DNA of 36,051 nt from IMG/VR virus record IMGVR_UViG_2579778871_000005, one strand, 5' to 3'. The position numbers were made by a program, and so were the translations under genes. The notes under the pieces were generated by a model. That model did not search any database and was not told the origin of the DNA. It saw only the letters and a program-made list of their open reading frames with translations. How positions within the stretch are numbered: the stretch's first letter is position 1; each line of letters begins with the position of its first letter. The DNA comes from a virus (lineage: Duplodnaviria; Heunggongvirae; Uroviricota; Caudoviricetes). Positions 22,379 to 35,610 of the stretch are shown here, piece after piece.

Positions 22379-22926
22379 TTGACGATCCCGTAGATTTCCT
22401 CGCGCACCCGGCGCAACGTTTCTGCGTCAATGCGCCCGGAGCCGGATTTCGATTCGGCCTCCAGCGAGTCCATTTTCGCGGCAATTTTCTCGCGCAGCTC
22501 CTGCTGAAACTTCTTCAGGTTGACGCTGGCGCGGCTCAACGTCGCCACGTTCTTTGCCACCTTCGACAGCAGCGCCACACGCTCCTGCGGGTCAATCTCG
22601 CCGACCTCCGCCTCCTGTAACTGGACGATGGACTCAAACAATTCAGTCTGGATCAGCGCAATCACCGCCTCCGAACGGGCGTCCTGATCGTCGGCGGCTC
22701 CTTCCGTCAGCATCCGCGCCGCTTCGGTAGCCGCGCGGATGGCAGTAAAGCGGCGCTCAATCTTCTGGCCGTAACGGTGAATGGCGCTGCGGCTGATAAG
22801 GTAGCCCTTATCACGCATCAGTTCTTCCAGTTCGGCATAACCGCTGAAACCACTGTCTGTCAGCGCCCGTTCCAGCCAGCGGCGCACATCCTCCGGAAGT
22901 TTGTCGATAGTGCTGCGGCGGGCCAT
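22375..22926 (-). CDS. Terminase small subunit-like protein, Mu gp27-like (DUF3486-type)
   Basis: ORF 22375..23001; ATG at 22926 gives MARRSTIDKLPEDVRRWLERALTDSGFSGYAELEELMRDKGYLISRSAIHRYGQKIE..., matching the N-terminal pattern I recall for Mu gp27-family proteins. Confidence 0.6.
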   Translation of the reverse strand: MARRSTIDKLPEDVRRWLERALTDSGFSGYAELEELMRDKGYLISRSAIHRYGQKIERRFTAIRAATEAARMLTEGAADDQDARSEAVIALIQTELFESIVQLQEAEVGEIDPQERVALLSKVAKNVATLSRASVNLKKFQQELREKIAAKMDSLEAESKSGSGRIDAETLRRVREEIYGIVK

Positions 22927-22927
22927 G

Positions 22928-23233
22928 TCATTCACTCCAGTACTTTTGCGGGCGGGCAATGCCGGGGCCACAGTCCACGGTGTACTCGACCACATCAACA
23001 CCGAGACGGGTCAAATCACCGAACCAGGTGCCGGACGGTTCCTTCACCAGTTCCACCATCCGGCGGTCAGCCAGATAGTCCAGCTCACGCCTAAGCTCCA
23101 GCGCGGTGGCATCCGGGTAAATCGCCTGCATCACCGCCAGTAAAAACCGTTCATTGCTGGTATAGGGCCGCGCCTTGTTCAGCGCCAGCATCAAATTCCA
23201 GCGCATCGACTCACGACGAATTTTATCCATCAT
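22928..23233 (-). CDS. Hypothetical protein (Mu gp26 position)
   Basis: 101-aa ORF with ATGA-type coupling to the upstream gene; no recognisable motif. Confidence 0.45.
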   Translation of the reverse strand: MMDKIRRESMRWNLMLALNKARPYTSNERFLLAVMQAIYPDATALELRRELDYLADRRMVELVKEPSGTWFGDLTRLGVDVVEYTVDCGPGIARPQKYWSE

Positions 23234-23544
23234 CTGCCACCCCCTTGCGACAGTTCGATTTTGTTATACAGCGCATCCAGTTTGGCTTCGATAACCGTCT
23301 GGCCCCGGATGTAGTCCTCGCGCCGCACGTAGTTCAATGGCATATCGGCGCGGAACTCCAGGAACTCGCGCTCCAGCCGTGACCAGCCTGACTCTGAATC
23401 TTTACGCGCCGCCTCCAGTGCCTCAAAGCGTTCATTTAGTCGCTTCTCAATCTGGGTTAACAGCATCTTACCGGCGGCAAACATTACCCCCAGAAACGAC
23501 AGCAGCATGGAAACCACTTCCCAGAAATCAACCTGCAACATCAT
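23230..23544 (-). CDS. Hypothetical membrane-anchored coiled-coil protein
   Basis: ORF 23230..23604; ATG at 23544 (MMLQVDFWEVVSMLLSFLGVMFAAG...) overlaps the Rz stop; one N-terminal hydrophobic helix. Confidence 0.45.
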   Translation of the reverse strand: MMLQVDFWEVVSMLLSFLGVMFAAGKMLLTQIEKRLNERFEALEAARKDSESGWSRLEREFLEFRADMPLNYVRREDYIRGQTVIEAKLDALYNKIELSQGGGR

Positions 23545-24111
23545 CGTGACACCTCTCTGATGTACTGCTGTAACCCATGTACCTGTGCCTTCAGTTGCTG
23601 GCACTGTTTTCCGTTGTCAGCAATGCTGGCGAGGACGTCGCGCTGGTTGATACCGGATGCGCGTAACCGGGTGTCAGCGCCCGGAACGACTGCGGCGGTT
23701 GCGCCAGCGTCGCGGGAAGCGGCGGCAATGTCCGGGGCGGACACACCGAAGGCGGCGTTGTACTGCTGCACGAAGCCGCGAGTAAACACGCAATCGACAG
23801 GGTGAGCCTTGCCGCGTTCGTCAATGTAATGATGCGTAACATCGTTAATTTTCCTTTGAAGTTCGGCGTTACGGGCGGTCAGCTCTTCCGTCCGGGTGAG
23901 ATACGTCTGTTCATGTTGGCGAATGTTAATAAGCTGCTGCTGGCTACGGTTCATCTCTTCCTGCAAAGCCCGCTGGCTGGCCTCAGCCTGCTGTTTTTGC
24001 AGGCGCAGGCATTCGGTCTGTGCCTTCTCATAGCCCGCCTTATGACCTTGCAGCCAGGCGAAATACCCACCCAATGCAAAGGCAAGCGTGATGGCTAACC
24101 CTTTATTGAAC
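23541..24111 (-). CDS. Rz-like inner-membrane spanin (i-spanin)
   Basis: ORF 23541..24215; probable GTG start at 24111 preceded by GGGGAGGGG; product has an N-terminal TM helix (LAITLAFALGGYFAWL) then a long coiled coil; directly downstream of the transglycosylase. Confidence 0.6.
23591..23842 (-). CDS. Rz1-like outer-membrane lipoprotein spanin (o-spanin), embedded out of frame in Rz
   Basis: 83-aa ORF wholly inside the Rz gene in another frame; lipobox-like LLAASC followed by a Pro-rich segment (TTPPSVCPPRTLPPLPATLAQPP), the hallmark of embedded Rz1 genes. Confidence 0.55.
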   Translation of the reverse strand: MLRIITLTNAARLTLSIACLLAASCSSTTPPSVCPPRTLPPLPATLAQPPQSFRALTPGYAHPVSTSATSSPALLTTENSASN

Positions 24112-24837
24112 ACAGGTAGCCCCTCCCCATGACAGGTAGCGCGGTGCGTTCTGGTAGAGGATGCGCTGCGGATAACCCCGGTTCTCGCGCCAGTTCGCCG
24201 CACTACGCCCGGCATTGACCGTGGCTACAACATCGAACCAGACGCCTGCATCCAGCCCGCGCTGCGTCGCCAGCTTCTTGTCGCGGTTAACCCAGCCTAA
24301 GCCGCCGTTATAGGCGCTTAAGGTGAATGCCATCCGCTGGCAACCATCGCGGGCGCTGACGCGCTGCCACAACCACAGGTCGTATTGCACCAGCGCCCGG
24401 ATGGCCCACGACGGGTTAAACGGTTCGCGGGCGCGGAGTTCGGGAAACAGTTGGCTGATCCAGTCGCTGGTGGAGGGCATAAACTGCGCCATCCCCTGTG
24501 CGCCAACGGGCGAGCGGGCAGAAGGGTTCCAGCCGGATTCCTGCTGGAACTGCCCGGCGAAATCCGCCACCGGCGCATCCATACCCCACACAGCGCGGGC
24601 GTTGCGAACCAGTTCAGCGCGGTAGGGTTTGGCGGCGGCGGGTGGTTCGGCAGCGTTAGCCTGGCTGAAAAAGCCGCCGCACCAGAGCAGCCAGCCTGCA
24701 ATCAGTACCGCCAGCGACTGATACCAGAAATTGTGTTTATCGGTGCGTGGTTGCCCGTGACGCGCCAGCGCCATTCCCATCCCCAGCAGTGCCGCCACAG
24801 ACCAGACAACCTGCGGCCAGTACATATGCAGCGTCAT
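24103..24837 (-). CDS. Lytic transglycosylase endolysin with N-terminal hydrophobic anchor
   Basis: ORF 24103..24867; ATG at 24837 (MTLHMYWPQVVWSVAALLGMGMALA...); contains a transglycosylase-like motif with catalytic Glu (..FAGQFQQESGWNPSARSPVGAQGMAQFMP..); two N-terminal hydrophobic segments. Confidence 0.75.
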   Translation of the reverse strand: MTLHMYWPQVVWSVAALLGMGMALARHGQPRTDKHNFWYQSLAVLIAGWLLWCGGFFSQANAAEPPAAAKPYRAELVRNARAVWGMDAPVADFAGQFQQESGWNPSARSPVGAQGMAQFMPSTSDWISQLFPELRAREPFNPSWAIRALVQYDLWLWQRVSARDGCQRMAFTLSAYNGGLGWVNRDKKLATQRGLDAGVWFDVVATVNAGRSAANWRENRGYPQRILYQNAPRYLSWGGATCVQ

Positions 24838-24839
24838 GG

Positions 24840-25130
24840 CTACAGCCCCATCGCCACGGACAGACACACCGCCGCGACAATCACGGCCCGGCGTAGCATC
24901 GCGGCGGAAAAGAGACGTTGTTCATCTTCCGCTGACTGAAAATAATTGGGCCGCGCATAGGGAAACAGGCTGCGATCCAGCCAGTAACCCAGCACCGCCG
25001 CCAGTGAAATCAGGCTTAGTTTGTAGATGACAACCGGGAGTTGCTGCGGGGAAATCAGGGCAATCAGTGCGAACAGCACCACCGATGCCACCAGCCAGCC
25101 GGATAAACGCGGGAAAAGAGAATTTTTCAT
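24840..25130 (-). CDS. Holin candidate (small protein with three hydrophobic segments)
   Basis: ORF 24840..25142; ATG at 25130 preceded by GGAGG; 96 aa; directly upstream of and abutting the endolysin gene. Confidence 0.5.
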   Translation of the reverse strand: MKNSLFPRLSGWLVASVVLFALIALISPQQLPVVIYKLSLISLAAVLGYWLDRSLFPYARPNYFQSAEDEQRLFSAAMLRRAVIVAAVCLSVAMGL

Positions 25131-25195
25131 AAGTGCCTCCATTGGGTGATGAAGGCAGTGTGGGGGATGGCTGGCAGGAAGGCTTTTAAAGGGGT

Positions 25196-26404
25196 TTAAG
25201 GAGTGGGCTTATTGCTCAAGTGATGCCACCATGACATCACTTTTGTAACCAAGGTATTCCATGTTTCAGGGTATGTGCAGTATAGGTAAATTAATCCTGT
25301 CGATATAATAGCGACAACAAGGAACATAATGATAAACCAGAACGCAATAACCTGACGGCAAAGACGTTTACGTACAGAGCAAAAGATACTATCAATGTCA
25401 TTTTTTATTGATGCATACTTTTTATCAACCTGAGTCTTTTTATGTCGAAGTTCTTCTTTGATAGCGGTTAACGTCTGTAACTGGTTGAACAAAGTCAACA
25501 TAACCAACGTAGCAAAAACAAAGGCCCCTAAAAAAACTGCGCTATTGATAATGGTTTGATAGACATCACCACTTGCTTTCTTGATTTGTGTCGCGACGAT
25601 AATGGTTGCGACTGGGATACCCAGTATCTGGTTTTGGATATCTGAAAAGACTTTGTGGATACGTCCCATTTCTTCAACTTTGGCGGTTCTAAGTTCATCC
25701 AGAACCTTTTCGTATGAGAACCCAGAAGTGAAGAGGCGATAACCCTTATCGAACTCAACTTTTAATTTTTCAATGTTCTTCAGTGCATACTCAAAGACTT
25801 TATTGTTTTCCGTTTCCTGACCGATTAACTGGATGCTTTCAATTAAAAGGGAGAGTTTCTGCTCTTTGTGTGTGTCGTCAGAAAACTGCTGAATGAGTTC
25901 ATCGAGTGTCGTTTTATCAAGATTTTCTACGGTTTCTGCACTGTAACGTATAGGTAATTTAAATACATCGGCACGGAAAAAAACGCATTCATATGCTCTG
26001 GTATCAAAGTATGCCGACTTTTCTTTAAGCAGGCGCAGAAATGTTAAGATAGTGCGGTAGTTTTCAATTACGGATGTTGGCGCATCCGAACTATAAAATT
26101 GGCTGTCGATCAGGTAGTATCGGGAAGGTTCCTCGCTTTGGTGTTTTGGCGACTTTAACAAAGCCGCCAAATTACGGCATAGCAGACCTAGCTTTGTCTT
26201 TGGGGCGTTCACAAATAGCGACACCTGCTGACCAGGTTCTACTTCGCCTTGTGCCAGAGAGATCCCATATGTATCAGTGTCCTCAAGCAAGGTGTTGAGC
26301 AACTCGCAGGATTCTGGGGTAAGCACCAGCGTACCTTCGGCCATATCGTTACCGAAAGTAATCTGCCTGTACAATCCCACCAGCTGCTCAAAACTGATAC
26401 TCAC
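25196..26404 (-). CDS. Cargo protein of unknown function with ~330-aa soluble N-terminal region and two C-terminal TM helices
   Basis: 402-aa ORF; its start overlaps the stop of the NdpA-like gene (ATGA at 26401-26404); C-terminal hydrophobic helices (..TIINSAVFLGAFVFATLVMLTLF.. and ..VIAFWFIIMFLVVAIISTGLIYLY..); AT-richer than the phage backbone by eye. Confidence 0.75.
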   Translation of the reverse strand: MSISFEQLVGLYRQITFGNDMAEGTLVLTPESCELLNTLLEDTDTYGISLAQGEVEPGQQVSLFVNAPKTKLGLLCRNLAALLKSPKHQSEEPSRYYLIDSQFYSSDAPTSVIENYRTILTFLRLLKEKSAYFDTRAYECVFFRADVFKLPIRYSAETVENLDKTTLDELIQQFSDDTHKEQKLSLLIESIQLIGQETENNKVFEYALKNIEKLKVEFDKGYRLFTSGFSYEKVLDELRTAKVEEMGRIHKVFSDIQNQILGIPVATIIVATQIKKASGDVYQTIINSAVFLGAFVFATLVMLTLFNQLQTLTAIKEELRHKKTQVDKKYASIKNDIDSIFCSVRKRLCRQVIAFWFIIMFLVVAIISTGLIYLYCTYPETWNTLVTKVMSWWHHLSNKPTP

Positions 26405-27432
26405 TCCTCAACCTCATCCAGTATCTCTTCCCTGAAGCTATCAGGAATATTCCTTAGAATGATTACATCCTGATCACGATTATACTCAATTGAACCATCT
26501 ACAAGACCGACACGATCAAACTTTAGTTCCCAATAATTAGACTTTCCTTTAAAGGAAATGATTCCTTTTAGTACGCGTCCATCAGGGACAAAACCATCCG
26601 ACAGTTCCAGTTCTTGGTTGGCTAGTTTAGTCGAGAGTAGTTCTGGTTCTTGTGGCCAGACCGCATTCACAAAGGTTGTCAGATCTACAGGCTCACCATC
26701 TTTGCTCAGTTGCTTCAAATGGTCATGTGCAGTTTGCAGAAAAGCCTCTCGATGTGCGGGGTCAAGCCCTTGCTCAGTCGCAAATTCTTTCAACGCATCC
26801 CGCAATTTCTCCGTTTCACGCTTGGCGATCAAAACATCGTTACAGCCCAGGAATTGCTTAAAGTAACCAGATACAGCATTACTCCCCTTCAGGAAACTTA
26901 TATAACGTTCGGCACCTGATTGCCAGGACGTAATGTCAATACGCCCCGCCACACGTAGCTTGTCGATATCAAGGTAGACACTTTCTTGGATAGCAAAGGC
27001 ATCGTTAACCGCAGTACCCGTCGTGGGACTTAACATGGCAACTAAAATATGCTCGTGTTGATTCATCGTAATGTGGGCGAATAGAACATAGCCACCAGTA
27101 GCGAGTGGTGTTGTTTGAATTCGAGATTCCAAATGACGAATCATACGGCAGGAGCTACGGTAAAAATTATCAGGATGCTCCTGAGCTAAATAGTCTGATA
27201 CAATTGTTTGCATCGGGTAATTATCTGGGTCATCTTCAAAATGGCCATAGCCTTTCCCCATTCGCCCTGCATATTTCCCACAGATATCATCGATTAAGCG
27301 TTGTGATGCTGCGGTGACACCGCTCTCTGTTGGACTTAGCTGTAAGGATGTCACCCCATGCGGTTCTTTATCTAAAAGATGAACAACCACATGATTTACA
27401 ACGATTGCATTTGCAGGTTCATTTGCTGGCAT
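26401..27432 (-). CDS. NdpA/YejK-like nucleoid-associated protein homolog (diverged)
   Basis: ORF 26401..27483 (first codon GTG); likely ATG at 27432. Segment GGYVLFAHITMNQHEHILVAMLSP...RIDITSWQSGAERYISFLKGSNAVSGYFKQFLG aligns with E. coli YejK as I recall it ([24 protein letters not shown]...[37 protein letters not shown]). Confidence 0.65.
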   Translation of the reverse strand: MPANEPANAIVVNHVVVHLLDKEPHGVTSLQLSPTESGVTAASQRLIDDICGKYAGRMGKGYGHFEDDPDNYPMQTIVSDYLAQEHPDNFYRSSCRMIRHLESRIQTTPLATGGYVLFAHITMNQHEHILVAMLSPTTGTAVNDAFAIQESVYLDIDKLRVAGRIDITSWQSGAERYISFLKGSNAVSGYFKQFLGCNDVLIAKRETEKLRDALKEFATEQGLDPAHREAFLQTAHDHLKQLSKDGEPVDLTTFVNAVWPQEPELLSTKLANQELELSDGFVPDGRVLKGIISFKGKSNYWELKFDRVGLVDGSIEYNRDQDVIILRNIPDSFREEILDEVEE

Positions 27433-27509
27433 AGAATCTGAAACCTTCAGTAGAGTTAGATAGTAAATGCATGCTGTCTGCACGCTTTTTGGTTTTGTTT
27501 ACAACATGT

Positions 27510-28031
27510 TTAATCTTGCCTTGGACACATCCAGTAATCCTCATCCGGCTCTGGCGAGTAAACCATCAGGCACCCTTCGCGCGGCGGCTTCTTATCAGAA
27601 GTCATAGGAACTTTTTCTTTATCCAGTTTCACAACCAGATCCCCACCCGGTACATCCGCTTTATCGAAGCAGACAGACTGGCAGGCAGATTTTGAAATCT
27701 TTACTTCGTGGGTATTATTGGAGATGAAAAGGAAGCAGGTATGACCGGAGGCAGTGTAATTACCTGGTATGTCGTTTTTATCTTTTACGTGAAACTCGAC
27801 CGTCGTAACGGGACGTTGGCTATCATCGTAGACCTTGAACGAATCGAAGTTTGTCGCGTACTTATCCAGACCTGGGCACTGTTGACGAATAAACGGCAGT
27901 TCACGTTTTACTACCGGATTATCGGACTCAACCTTAAATGTAGTAGGGACAGGAGATGGTGCGGCATTATCATCACCACACCCAACCATTAGCAGAGCAC
28001 TTACCCCCAGAGGTAAAAGAAAGTGCTTCAT
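27510..28031 (-). CDS. Cys-rich lipoprotein of unknown function (possible exclusion protein)
   Basis: 173-aa ORF with signal peptide and lipobox (MKHFLLPLGVSALLMVGC); AAGGA ribosome-binding site before the ATG at 28031; same strand as and downstream of the repressor. Confidence 0.7.
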   Translation of the reverse strand: MKHFLLPLGVSALLMVGCGDDNAAPSPVPTTFKVESDNPVVKRELPFIRQQCPGLDKYATNFDSFKVYDDSQRPVTTVEFHVKDKNDIPGNYTASGHTCFLFISNNTHEVKISKSACQSVCFDKADVPGGDLVVKLDKEKVPMTSDKKPPREGCLMVYSPEPDEDYWMCPRQD

Positions 28032-28143
28032 AAAACATCCTTATCTAAAGAAACTCCGTCAACTCTGACAGCAGGTCTCTGGTGACAGAGATAACCAACA
28101 GACCTTTTGAGGCTTTAACCAGGTGCGTAATACCACTACGTTA

Positions 28144-28494
28144 CTATCCGGCTTGTTTATCGGGTCGGGCCTGCGTGAGCAATCGGCCCATTTCAAGAAT
28201 CGCCCTCCGTTGTTCGGCGCTCATATCGTCAAAGGCCTCTAACAACCTTTGTTTTTCTGGTGAAAAATTTTCTACCTTTTCTGCAACCATTGATGGATTA
28301 CGTTGCCCAGTAACTACATAGAGAACATCTAATCCAACCTTTGCCCAAGCCTCTAAAACCGCACTATTAGGGAACGAAGCGCCTTTTTCCCAATTGATTT
28401 GGGAGTGCTTACCTGCGCTAGCCAAAGCAGCGAAATCAGTCTGGTTGTAACCCAACCGTTCACGTTCCTTTTTAATGCGTTCACCTTGGTTCAT
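28144..28494 (-). CDS. Prophage repressor, XRE-family helix-turn-helix protein
   Basis: 116-aa ORF with N-terminal HTH-like segment (..IKKERERLGYNQTDFAALASAGKHSQINWEKG..); divergent from the early operon across a repeat-containing intergenic region; no peptidase domain. Confidence 0.7.
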   Translation of the reverse strand: MNQGERIKKERERLGYNQTDFAALASAGKHSQINWEKGASFPNSAVLEAWAKVGLDVLYVVTGQRNPSMVAEKVENFSPEKQRLLEAFDDMSAEQRRAILEMGRLLTQARPDKQAG

Positions 28495-28589
28495 TTTTTT
28501 CTACTTTTACATTGAAAGGTTGAAAATTTTCTACCATAATCTACCACACATAAACCAAACATCATTGCATCAAACAAGGAGCCAGAACC
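28495..28589. promoter_or_regulatory. Divergent repressor/early promoter-operator region
   Basis: Candidate rightward sigma70 promoter: -35 TTGAAA (28512-28517), 17-bp spacer, -10 CATAAT (28535-28540); repeated TTTTCTAC(C) at 28497-28504 and 28527-28535 and TCTACCA at 28540-28546; AAGGA before the ATG at 28590. Confidence 0.45.
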
Positions 28590-28775
28590 ATGACAACCGA
28601 TCAGGTCAAAGCCCTCTTTCGTCAGCGCGGCGTTACCTTTACCCGCTGGGCAGAAGATAACGGTTACACCCGCAATGAGGTGTATCGCGTGCTTAATGGT
28701 CAGTCAAAAGCCAACTACGGAAAGGCGCATGAGATTGCCGTCAAACTTGGCCTTAAGTCCGGCATCGCCGCCTAG
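28590..28775 (+). CDS. Ner/Cro-like small DNA-binding protein (first early gene)
   Basis: 61-aa ORF opening the rightward operon opposite the repressor; HTH-like pattern (..RQRGVTFTRWAEDNGYTRNEVYRVLNG..). Confidence 0.5.
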   Translation: MTTDQVKALFRQRGVTFTRWAEDNGYTRNEVYRVLNGQSKANYGKAHEIAVKLGLKSGIAA

Positions 28776-28836
28776 ATTTTACAGTAAGTGTAACAGCGTT
28801 TCACATACAGAAAAGAGGCAACACAGGATAATCGTT

Positions 28837-29076
28837 ATGAAACCTACCGATTTAACCCCCGGCCAGCGCGTACTGATTACACCAGAGCTTGGCCCGAAAA
28901 CCCCGCTTCACGGTACTTTTCTCCGCCGCGTTCCGCGCCAGTGTGGTCGGGCGGCTTACAGCGTTTTTCGCATTGATGAATTTGTCGAGCAGAACGGGCC
29001 AGACGATAAAGGAGACACCCCGATGTCGGATTCCTGCATTTCCCGTCGGGTACAACCACTGGAGGTGCGTACATGA
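28837..29076 (+). CDS. Hypothetical early protein
   Basis: ORF 28675..29076; likely ATG at 28837 (MKPTDLTPGQRVLITPELGP...); stop overlaps the next start. Confidence 0.4.
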   Translation: MKPTDLTPGQRVLITPELGPKTPLHGTFLRRVPRQCGRAAYSVFRIDEFVEQNGPDDKGDTPMSDSCISRRVQPLEVRT

Positions 29077-29369
29077 AGGCTTCTACCTCCGGCGCACGCA
29101 TCCTTCGCGTACTCAAAGCCCTGAAAGGCTACTCGCTCACCGGGCTGTCCAATGGCGAACTAGCGGCGGCGTTGCATGAATCCCCGGCCAATATCACTCG
29201 TGCCGCTGACACTCTGATCGAAGAGGGCCTGGTACAACGGCTGGAAAATGGGCGCTTTGCCATGAGCATGGCGATGCTACAAATCGCCCACGCTCATGCG
29301 ACAGAAGTCACCCGCGCTCAGGACAGACTAAAAGAAATGAATCAACGCCTGCTGGCTGGCAGTCGATAA
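29073..29369 (+). CDS. Winged-helix DNA-binding protein, putative early regulator
   Basis: 98-aa ORF (..ILRVLKALKGYSLTGLSNGELAAALHESPANITRAADTLIEEGLVQR..), a pattern typical of winged-helix transcription factors. Confidence 0.45.
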   Translation: MKASTSGARILRVLKALKGYSLTGLSNGELAAALHESPANITRAADTLIEEGLVQRLENGRFAMSMAMLQIAHAHATEVTRAQDRLKEMNQRLLAGSR

Positions 29370-34828: not shown

Positions 34829-35233
34829 ATGAACAGAGCACAATTATTGCGGGTTATCCATGTTGCCCGGCGAGAGCTGCGACTGGATGAGGCTACGTAT
34901 CGACAATTACTCAAAACACACTGCGGCGGGGAATCATTACGGGTAATGAGCGACTCACAACTGGCTAAGGCTTTCGCTGTGATGAAAAAACAGGGCTTCA
35001 AAGTCACATCTAAAGAGCCTCCTTCCTATGATAAGCAGTCTGCGATGATCCGCGCATTATGGAAGGAACTGGCGTCCAGCGGTACGGTTAGAGATGGCAG
35101 TTTGTCAGCGTTAAATAAGTTCGTACAGCGCCAGACAGGTGTCGCCCGGCTTGAGTGGCTGAATAATCAACAGGCTAGCCAGGTGATTGAACAACTGAAA
35201 AAATGGCTGGCGCGTGTCGGGAGGAGAAGATGA
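34829..35233 (+). CDS. GemA-like protein (Mu gp16 family)
   Basis: 134-aa ORF; ..LLRVIHVARRELRLDEATYRQLLK..., the pattern I recall for GemA-family proteins, located immediately upstream of mor as in Mu; GGAGG before the ATG. Confidence 0.55.
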   Translation: MNRAQLLRVIHVARRELRLDEATYRQLLKTHCGGESLRVMSDSQLAKAFAVMKKQGFKVTSKEPPSYDKQSAMIRALWKELASSGTVRDGSLSALNKFVQRQTGVARLEWLNNQQASQVIEQLKKWLARVGRRR

Positions 35234-35610
35234 AAGAACCGCAACAGCCAGAAATCTTTGCTGACCTTGCGCACCATGTCGCGAGCACGTTGCAAGAAAT
35301 GGTTGGAATGGAAGATGATATAGCTGAACAAATTGCTGTAGCTGTTGCTAACCGCATGATGCAAGCATGGGGCGGGCAAACCATCTACCTGCCCAAAGGC
35401 ATGGTCTTCATGACATCGGCGCGGGACTACAAAATCTGGCAGGAGTGTGATGGACGCAACTACCGCGAACTGGCGAAGAAGTACAACCTGACTTTGCAGT
35501 GGATCTACAAAGTAGTGAAAAAGATCCAGCGTTCTGAAAGCGCCCGCCGACAACTCCCATTATTCTCTATCACTGATGAACCTGAAGCAGTAAAATCAAC
35601 CCTGAAGTGA
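35230..35610 (+). CDS. mor: Mor-like transcriptional activator (Mor/C family)
   Basis: ORF 35203..35610; ATG at 35230 overlaps the gemA-like stop (ATGA), preceded by GAGGAG; C-terminal ..RDYKIWQECDGRNYRELAKKYNLTLQWIYKVVKK.. matches the Mor/C-family HTH region. Confidence 0.65.
   Translation: MKEPQQPEIFADLAHHVASTLQEMVGMEDDIAEQIAVAVANRMMQAWGGQTIYLPKGMVFMTSARDYKIWQECDGRNYRELAKKYNLTLQWIYKVVKKIQRSESARRQLPLFSITDEPEAVKSTLK

Follow-up and report, generated by a model that had tools for sequence, protein, structure and literature searches.

The lysis cassette of the Burkholderia phage BcepMu was reportedly described in 2004, and its type is textbook. Here, we analyzed a 36,051-nucleotide (nt) stretch of Caudoviricetes DNA (IMG/VR record IMGVR_UViG_2579778871_000005; the window). 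Judged by its genes and their order, it holds a cassette of this known BcepMu type, the direct counterpart of BcepMu gp21 to gp24. The endolysin is a predicted lytic transglycosylase, and its leader is a two-helix module that elsewhere occurs as a free-standing phage protein. We could not find a description of an exported transglycosylase that combines a recruited two-helix micro-protein leader with a conserved signal-peptidase motif. The signal-anchor-release (SAR) endolysins P1 Lyz, phage 21 R, and Mu gp22, the last working with gp25, undergo Sec export before lysis and have a weakly hydrophobic N-terminal segment, as is predicted for the window enzyme. They are muramidases, however, whereas the window enzyme is a predicted transglycosylase, and Mu has no holin, whereas the window has one. 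Oenococcus phage fOg44 Lys44, LysP335, and T4 RI have an N-terminal hydrophobic segment followed by a signal peptidase I site, which is also what the window enzyme appears to have. Lys44 is cited as a secreted, signal-peptidase-processed endolysin in a published account (PMC2628397). The lactococcal LysP335 endolysin combines a transmembrane domain (TMD) with a signal peptidase I site, and its activity requires removal of the TMD (PMC9371310). In T4 RI, what had long passed for a SAR domain turned out to be a cleavable signal peptide (PMC8385771). However, the signals of Lys44 and LysP335 are single segments in phages of Gram-positive hosts, whereas in the window, whose host is Gram negative, the candidate signal is helix 2 of a borrowed module.

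The cassette lies on the minus strand. The listing of open reading frames (ORFs) and our reading of the sequence gave a set of five genes, encoding proteins of 96, 244, 190, 83, and 104 residues, and the 104-residue gene is followed by homologues of Mu gp26 and gp27 (TerS, PF11985). In BcepMu, all five genes, including the embedded Rz1, belong to the same families and stand in the same order, with the packaging genes gp26 and gp27 next, so that the gene order matches BcepMu gp21 to gp28 one for one. The genes upstream of the holin, however, differ between the two phages. A transposase, a MuB-like ATPase, GemA, and Mor are encoded on the opposite strand of the window, and together with the BcepMu gene order they identify the element as a Bcepmuvirus-like transposable prophage. 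The window is also IMG/VR contig IMGVR_UViG_2728369607_000010. Prophages in 2 of 5,426 complete Escherichia coli genomes match the cassette with 100% identity, and the cassette DNA is about 70% identical to that of the E. coli/Klebsiella phages PhiKM and KP12 and of BcepMu. The B3-like Pseudomonas phages (B3 ORF24 to ORF28; Fc02 gp21 to gp26) likewise have a Holin_2-3 holin, an SLT endolysin, and an Rz-like spanin. An earlier note on this DNA had proposed a lysis cassette made of a holin, an exported lytic transglycosylase, and Rz with an embedded Rz1. That proposal holds: all of the ORFs are real, and they match curated families far above chance.

The endolysin precursor (24103 to 24837, minus strand; 244 residues) consists of the two-helix leader and an SLT lytic transglycosylase domain. 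It matches PF01464 (SLT; E = 2.8e-14; 53.1 bits against a cut-off of 21.3; residues 98 to 192) and phrog_669, "endolysin" (E = 1.8e-63), which bears out its earlier identification as a lytic transglycosylase. It has 1,892 homologues at E <= 1e-10 and is homologous to BcepMu gp22; the endolysin and the holin are 57 to 62% identical to the BcepMu proteins. Over its C-terminal 180 residues, the protein aligns with E. coli Slt70, in the catalytic domain. In the phmmer alignment, Glu100-Ser101 (QQE100S; Glu100 codon, 24538 to 24540) falls on the catalytic Glu478-Ser479 of Slt70 (RQE478S). Three motifs are invariant in 40 homologues, namely, E100-S101 (ES), GxxQ (Q118), and AYNGG (Y176-N177-G178-G179). 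Cys166 and Cys242 are invariant in the same 40 proteins, and an invariant Cys pair in the mature domain fits a periplasmic enzyme. By this homology, the catalytic Glu is Glu100, and the protein is a predicted lytic transglycosylase of GH23, family 1. The AlphaFold2 model has a mean predicted local distance difference test (pLDDT) score of 65.7, and at <50 the active-site stretch is too weak to judge autoinhibition by the leader. The top Foldseek neighbors of this low-confidence model were MltF, MltE, and MltC, with E values of only 0.04 to 10. The most likely start is ATG 24837 (MTLHMYWPQ, 244 residues), 2 nt past the holin stop codon, or else ATG 24825, as called by PGAP. The GTG at 24867 that had been taken as the start is probably wrong.

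Residues 1 to 62 (24652 to 24837, minus strand) form the leader, and they account for the roughly 60 hydrophobic residues with two segments noticed earlier as two weakly hydrophobic helices. An uncharged N-terminal tail is followed by helix 1 (residues 7 to 25; nt 24763 to 24819), a basic loop, RHGQPRTDKHN (nt 24730 to 24762), and helix 2 (residues 37 to 57; nt 24667 to 24729), which ends in WLLWCGGFF. The c-region SQANA comes next, with A-N-A at nt 24652 to 24660. Hydropathy peaks at residues 7 to 25 and 42 to 60, and AlphaFold2 placed helices at residues 7 to 25 and 37 to 53, with a break at GGFF and then a disordered linker. Endolysin residues 5 to 58 match positions 1 to 53 of the 53 positions of phrog_5479 (E = 4.9e-13), a PHROG of unknown function.

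With a profile derived from 34 leaders, we searched 1.84 billion representative proteins. The profile retrieved 1,768 representative clusters at E <= 0.001, mostly stand-alone proteins of 52 to 66 residues. Among the best 150 of the 1,768, 97 were stand-alone proteins of at most 66 residues that end within a few residues of GGFF, 38 were tandem duplicates of 101 to 135 residues, and only 2 were longer than 200 residues. The match was reciprocal, in that all tested members retrieved by the profile match phrog_5479. A narrower leader alignment, used in the locus search, mostly found the fused forms again. Pfam and NCBIfam scans of the stand-alone proteins returned only noise, and neither database has a model of the family. 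The family pattern is WPQI(T/V)W, a helix, (K/R)HG.P(K/R)TG..NF, a second helix, and LLW.GGFF. The family proteins Fc02 gp22, Mica gp37, and BcepB1A gp72 share with the leader the pattern WPQI...GLG...HG.P.TG..NF...LLW.GGFF, the length, and the two helices. They are free-standing or tandem and end right after GGFF, whereas the window module runs on into the A-x-A linker and the catalytic domain. Tandem duplicates with four helices and about 105 to 121 residues are frequent in the family, and one protein of 277 residues has two modules, a further TMD, and a long coiled coil.

The module is found in three arrangements at the lysis locus. In the Pseudomonas phages Fc02 and Young, it is a separate gene of 52 codons between the holin and the endolysin, its product ending in WWGGFFG, and there the endolysin carries a separate signal, MKRLLTLGLLGLLSACQPAFA↓TD (the arrow marks the candidate cleavage position). 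In B3, PhiKM, KP12, and the window, module and enzyme form a single fusion protein; the fused leader of B3 ORF25 ends in GGFFSSAKA↓DE. It is absent from BcepMu and from many holin-linked relatives, and BcepMu gp22 has instead one short N-terminal signal (MRVLIAFVVALLGAAAPVAA↓QVP). In the fused forms of B3 and the window, the module takes the place of the h-region of the endolysin signal, and the A-x-A c-region is kept. The leader is therefore modular in origin, and the family swaps export leaders (a short signal, a long charged signal, or the two-helix module) ahead of one conserved junction. Separately, the Fc02 gp23 endolysin signal, MKRLLTLGLLGLLSAC, has a lipobox-like LSAC plus a downstream AFA↓T site; by this sequence, gp23 may instead be a lipoprotein, neither SAR nor soluble.

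In Mica, FoX5, RHph_TM3_3_14B, BcepB1A, and IMG/VR contigs, the stand-alone copies are located among early or replication genes and not in lysis cassettes. We had considered phrog_5479 as a dedicated lysis protein, and this placement weakens that idea; the module is therefore a general small phage membrane protein that was recruited here. In three loci, the stand-alone genes stand beside DUF669 and an AAA-type ATPase in replication/recombination modules. This neighborhood hints at an early-phase membrane function apart from lysis.

The junction at the end of the leader is conserved whatever type of N terminus stands before it. The window junction reads SQA-N-A↓AEPP (A60-N61-A62↓A63), with a GG pair at -8/-7 and no Pro at +1. 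Across 91 distinct homologue junctions, position -3 was Ala in 82, Val in 4, Thr in 2, Gln in 2, and Ser in 1, and position -1 was Ala in 89 and Ser in 2. Position -2 was free, with 11 different residues (N, H, R, S, A, D, Q, Y, L, C, and E). On this pattern, the junction fits the (-3, -1) rule of signal peptidase I. The same junction also follows unrelated leaders. Two of these, MWRKYAGLSCTIFIFSTEA↓AEPP and MRHLLITLLVSPMLFSATVCA↓DTIP, are textbook signals of 19 to 22 residues, and their hydrophobic cores are too short for stable anchors. A Salmonella homologue has a long charged signal, MTRKRQRPDKEDSWLLALAVFILLVAFGFAVSLSPANA↓AEPP (variant leader, beginning MTRKRQRPDKEDSW), and a different two-helix leader ends in STTAHA↓AEPP. 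The classic layout of a Sec signal differs from that of the window leader, in which the basic stretch is an internal loop preceded by a helix and the h-region is about 17 to 21 residues long rather than 7 to 15. The signal would thus be internal, not N-terminal.

Charge distribution points to the orientation of the leader. In 79 fused and 93 stand-alone members, Lys plus Arg averaged about 0.1 per sequence in the N-terminal tail and about 2.0 in the interhelix loop. Helix 2 replaces the signal peptide of the endolysin, and therefore its C-terminal end should face the periplasm. From the charge bias and the fused and split arrangements, we infer an N-out/loop-in/C-out topology. This is the topology of E. 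coli leader peptidase.

We favor, as moderately probable, a reading in which the enzyme is exported by Sec as such a hairpin, cleaved after Ala62, transcribed late, and put to use when the holin triggers. Transcription would be confined to the late phase and would start from a Mor-dependent promoter in the short gap past the cargo genes, and the holin would build up in the inner membrane. The endolysin would not be kept in the cytoplasm. Instead, residues 1 to 62 would insert as a helical hairpin, with the uncharged tail and the end of helix 2 in the periplasm and the basic loop on the cytoplasmic side, and the SLT domain would therefore be threaded through Sec into the periplasm. Helix 2 and the c-region SQANA would serve as an internal signal peptide, which host signal peptidase I would cut after Ala62 (ANA↓AEPP). 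The cut would free a soluble lytic transglycosylase of about 20 kDa (predicted mature domain, GH23 family 1; residues 63 to 244; 24106 to 24651, minus strand) and leave a two-helix peptide of 62 residues in the membrane. Membrane depolarization at holin triggering would then time the destruction of the wall by the enzyme already exported, and Rz and Rz1 would act last, fusing or disrupting the outer membrane.

Several points weigh against this reading. We found no cleavage or topology experiment for any member of the endolysin family, and the cleavage call is based on the (-3, -1) rule and comparative conservation only. Positions +1 to +4 (A-E/Q-P-P) show the same degree of conservation as -3 and -1; therefore, a structural linker or a recombination junction could account for some of it. 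Compared with typical cleaved signals, helix 2 has a long h-region, and such length can favor an uncleaved anchor. Both helices are weakly hydrophobic, which keeps a SAR-like exit from the membrane compatible with the data, and Chamblee et al. class the related Pseudomonas (Fc02-type) transglycosylases as SAR endolysins (PMC9239132). The harmlessness of a soluble periplasmic transglycosylase before holin triggering is left unaccounted for. Finally, the conserved block upstream of the holin (discussed below) is only a candidate promoter, and its -10-like TAAAAG lacks the invariant final T.

SAR-type control, which the earlier note had considered, would keep the uncleaved endolysin inactive on the periplasmic face until the holin, acting as a pinholin, depolarized the membrane, perhaps with the protein at the gp25 position as a releasin. 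The part of this idea that stands is the weak hydrophobicity. The Kyte-Doolittle values of the two helices, 1.39 and 1.58, lie in the range of the experimentally proven SAR domain of Mu gp22. In addition, the listing by Chamblee et al. pairs the Fc02 transglycosylase with DUF2730 (PMC9239132), and a membrane-tethered coiled-coil protein occupies the releasin slot of the window. The reading as a single-helix anchor is not supported. A SAR domain is one weakly hydrophobic N-in/C-out helix, whereas the window has the two-helix phrog_5479 module and an A-x-A↓A site that is kept across the 91 junctions and is no feature of SAR domains. For release, the basic loop, with about two Lys or Arg, and the second helix would have to cross the membrane; in Mu, two cytoplasmic lysines are enough to stop spontaneous release (PMC9239132). 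The Gly/Ala/Ser/Thr content is 0.37 in each helix, near the 0.42 of Mu gp22 and under the 0.53 to 0.63 computed for the P1 and phage 21 SAR domains. The protein at the gp25 position has no detectable DUF2730 homology. We consider SAR-type control unlikely. The outcome lies between the SAR domain first suggested and a cleavable signal peptide with no anchor, in that a cleavable signal is indicated, yet an extra membrane helix precedes it. As a test of SAR domain versus anchor, hydrophobicity and Gly/Ala/Ser/Thr content were rejected as nondiscriminating; the true anchor of Rz scores below proven SAR domains.

A leader that is neither cleaved nor released would make the enzyme permanently tethered and gated by its expression level and by the loss of proton motive force that the holin causes. 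The long h-region of helix 2 and the helix before it disfavor access by the peptidase, and WLLWCGGFF is conserved far beyond usual signal-peptide cores, which suggests a lasting role in the membrane. However, close homologues have the same junction after 19- to 22-residue signals that are not stable anchors, BcepMu and many relatives have no module at all, and tethering would confine the enzyme to the inner face of the wall. Permanent anchoring therefore strikes us as quite improbable. Scarcely credible is a canonical holin-dependent endolysin, with the hairpin N-in/C-in, the SLT domain in the cytoplasm, and exit only through holin lesions. The holin gene directly precedes the endolysin gene, with nearly coupled stop and start codons, as such a scheme would have it. 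Against it, the positive-inside bias puts the loop rather than the termini in the cytoplasm, homologues have ordinary signal peptides at the same junction, and the mature domain has the invariant Cys pair.

Hairpin export with cleavage after Ala62 also allows an extension, which we hold to be rather doubtful. In it, the endolysin gene would be a small polyprotein from which signal peptidase yields both the soluble transglycosylase and a functional 62-residue phrog_5479 micro-protein. If so, the micro-protein might tune holin triggering, restrain the enzyme, or carry out the putative early function of the stand-alone members, and the fused (window and B3) and split (Fc02) forms would be two routes to the same pair of products.

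For the widespread phrog_5479 family of about 55 residues, the leader provides a first topological handle and an experimentally tractable context. The fusion requires the C terminus of the leader to be periplasmic, and this therefore gives the family a defined topology. The endolysin family is also a clean system in which to ask whether Gram-negative phage transglycosylases are cleaved or SAR controlled, a distinction already overturned for T4 RI. For annotation, "SAR endolysin" should not be assigned from hydrophobicity alone, nor "releasin" from the gp25 position alone.

The holin candidate (24840 to 25130, minus strand; 96 residues, MKNSLFPRL...) matches PF13272, Holin_2-3 (E = 4e-33; 114.3 bits against a cut-off of 27), and phrog_1528, "holin" (E = 9.6e-40). 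It is 62 to 69% identical to BcepMu gp21 and the PhiKM and KP12 holins. Its family and its position beside the endolysin make it a candidate for the holin role. By hydropathy, two TMDs are clear (about residues 9 to 27 and 31 to 51), and the N terminus is predicted to be cytoplasmic. A third segment of about 15 hydrophobic residues follows an Arg-Arg pair and reaches the C terminus. Thus, a 96-residue membrane protein does lie just upstream of the endolysin, as the earlier note said, but its three firm segments do not stand; the third is short, and "2 or 3 TMDs," as in the Pfam name, is the honest count. A GGAGG Shine-Dalgarno sequence lies 5 nt before ATG 25130, which is also the PGAP start. 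We rejected a dual-start holin (MEAL-MKNS; 100 residues from ATG 25142), as the extension adds no positive charge and is absent in relatives; ATG 25142 is also an unlikely start because it lies within the Shine-Dalgarno sequence of the second ATG. No experimental study of PF13272 holins or of this endolysin family turned up in our literature search.

The Rz-type i-spanin (23541 to 24113, minus strand; 190 residues) has a GTG start that overlaps the 3' end of the endolysin gene by 11 nt, and its boundaries are those of the PGAP coding sequence. It matches phrog_1403, "Rz-like spanin" (E = 2.4e-49), is syntenic with BcepMu gp23, and has a TMD peak at residues 4 to 22 followed by a periplasmic coiled coil. 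The Rz1-type o-spanin (23591 to 23842, minus strand; 83-residue precursor) lies wholly within Rz in another frame, and so the embedded pair recognized earlier is real. Its lipobox-like LLAAS↓C is slightly atypical, with Ala at -3, and its mature part is Pro rich. BcepMu gp24, annotated as Rz1, shows 41% identity to it, and the two have Cys and Pro positions in common. The RefSeq (PGAP) annotation of the identical E. coli prophage has no embedded Rz1 and lists Rz, the gene at the gp25 position, and the gp26 homologue as "hypothetical protein."

The protein at the gp25 position (23230 to 23544, minus strand; 104 residues) is encoded two genes past the endolysin and is the equivalent of BcepMu gp25. 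It matches phrog_462 (E = 1.1e-34) and has a TMD at residues 10 to 28 and a coiled-coil tail, with the C-terminal part predicted to be cytoplasmic. In Mu, a coiled-coil protein that is tethered to the membrane and lies in the cytoplasm is likewise encoded a few genes further on (PMC9239132), and the slot is that of the Mu gp25 releasin. Fc02 has a true DUF2730 protein there, whereas the window has a phrog_462 protein. The latter gave no Pfam match, to DUF2730 (PF10805) or otherwise, even at E <= 10, none of its 726 homologues has a Pfam domain, and BLASTP against Mu gp25 and Fc02 gp26 gave no match. We also rejected it as a DUF2730 releasin by hhalign (26 versus 38 sequences; probability, 0.3%). 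It is a releasin analogue by position and predicted architecture only. Among the B3-like Pseudomonas phages, the slot past the spanins holds either DUF2730 (Fc02) or phrog_462 (B3 and Young, as in the window). The sequences of these two families show no relationship, yet their architecture is the same, which looks like nonhomologous replacement.

Upstream of the holin, a gap separates the cassette from the cargo genes. It spans 25131 to 25195 and is thus 65 bp long, not 54 bp as first given. A terminator or late promoter in this gap had been proposed to keep the lysis genes silent in the lysogen. We scanned 22800 to 29200 for promoter and terminator consensus sequences and compared the counts with those in shuffled sequence. 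There were 6 promoter-like matches (5.8 expected) and 15 terminator-like matches (6.6 expected). In the gap, the scan found neither a sigma-70 promoter nor an intrinsic terminator, and the RNA folding z-score of the gap region was only -1.4. However, a block, TTAAACCCCTTTAAAAGCC (25177 to 25199), starts at the stop codon of the cargo gene. BcepMu, PhiKM, KP12, and many IMG/VR relatives with unrelated upstream sequence have the block too, equally far from the holin start. We searched for further copies as a shared late-promoter motif and found none; the block is single in the window. The window encodes a Mor-family transcription activator (35203 to 35610, plus strand; PF08765, E = 4.8e-39) at the end of the early operon. 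RNA sequencing (RNA-seq) of Fc02 showed that the holin-endolysin-packaging cluster is silent in the lysogen and turned on late (PMC9936078). By analogy with Mu biology and with these Fc02 data, Mor is the likely activator of a promoter upstream of the holin. Together, the conserved block, the Mor gene, and the Fc02 RNA-seq make an activator-dependent late promoter the most likely arrangement in the gap, and the block TTAAACCCCTTTAAAAGCCTTCC (25177 to 25199, minus strand) a candidate promoter/operator of the lysis-packaging operon. Of the two proposed elements, a late promoter is thus plausible, and a terminator finds no counterpart in the scan.

The Shine-Dalgarno sequence of the holin (GGAGG, 25136 to 25140) is paired in a 9-bp hairpin (25134 to 25157, minus strand; UGCCUUCAU-CACCCA-AUGGAGGCA), which is present in both the minimum free energy and the centroid structures. 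PhiKM/KP12-type relatives have a hairpin at the same position with a different stem (GUCUCC/GGAGAC). These predicted structures hint at translational damping of the holin.

The cassette lies directly downstream of the cargo island, as previously proposed, and the base composition confirms the island; the G+C fraction falls from 0.58 to 0.63 in the cassette to 0.39 to 0.46 over 25201 to 28800. The cargo slot (25196 to 28031, minus strand) encodes a 173-residue ORF, an NA37/NdpA-like nucleoid-associated protein (PF04245, E = 6e-73), and a 402-residue protein that has C-terminal membrane segments and matches phrog_5023. PADLOC found no known defense system among the cargo genes. Relatives hold other genes in this slot, such as a Dam methylase or, in BcepMu, gp18 to gp20. 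The last 20 codons of the 402-residue gene contain an 11-bp stem with a 3-nt loop (about 25222 to 25246, minus strand; GUGAUGUCAU-GGU-GGCAUCAC). This strong stem could mark a processing or termination site between the cargo and lysis genes. It has no U tract after it, and it is preserved in a 95%-identical relative despite a change in the loop.

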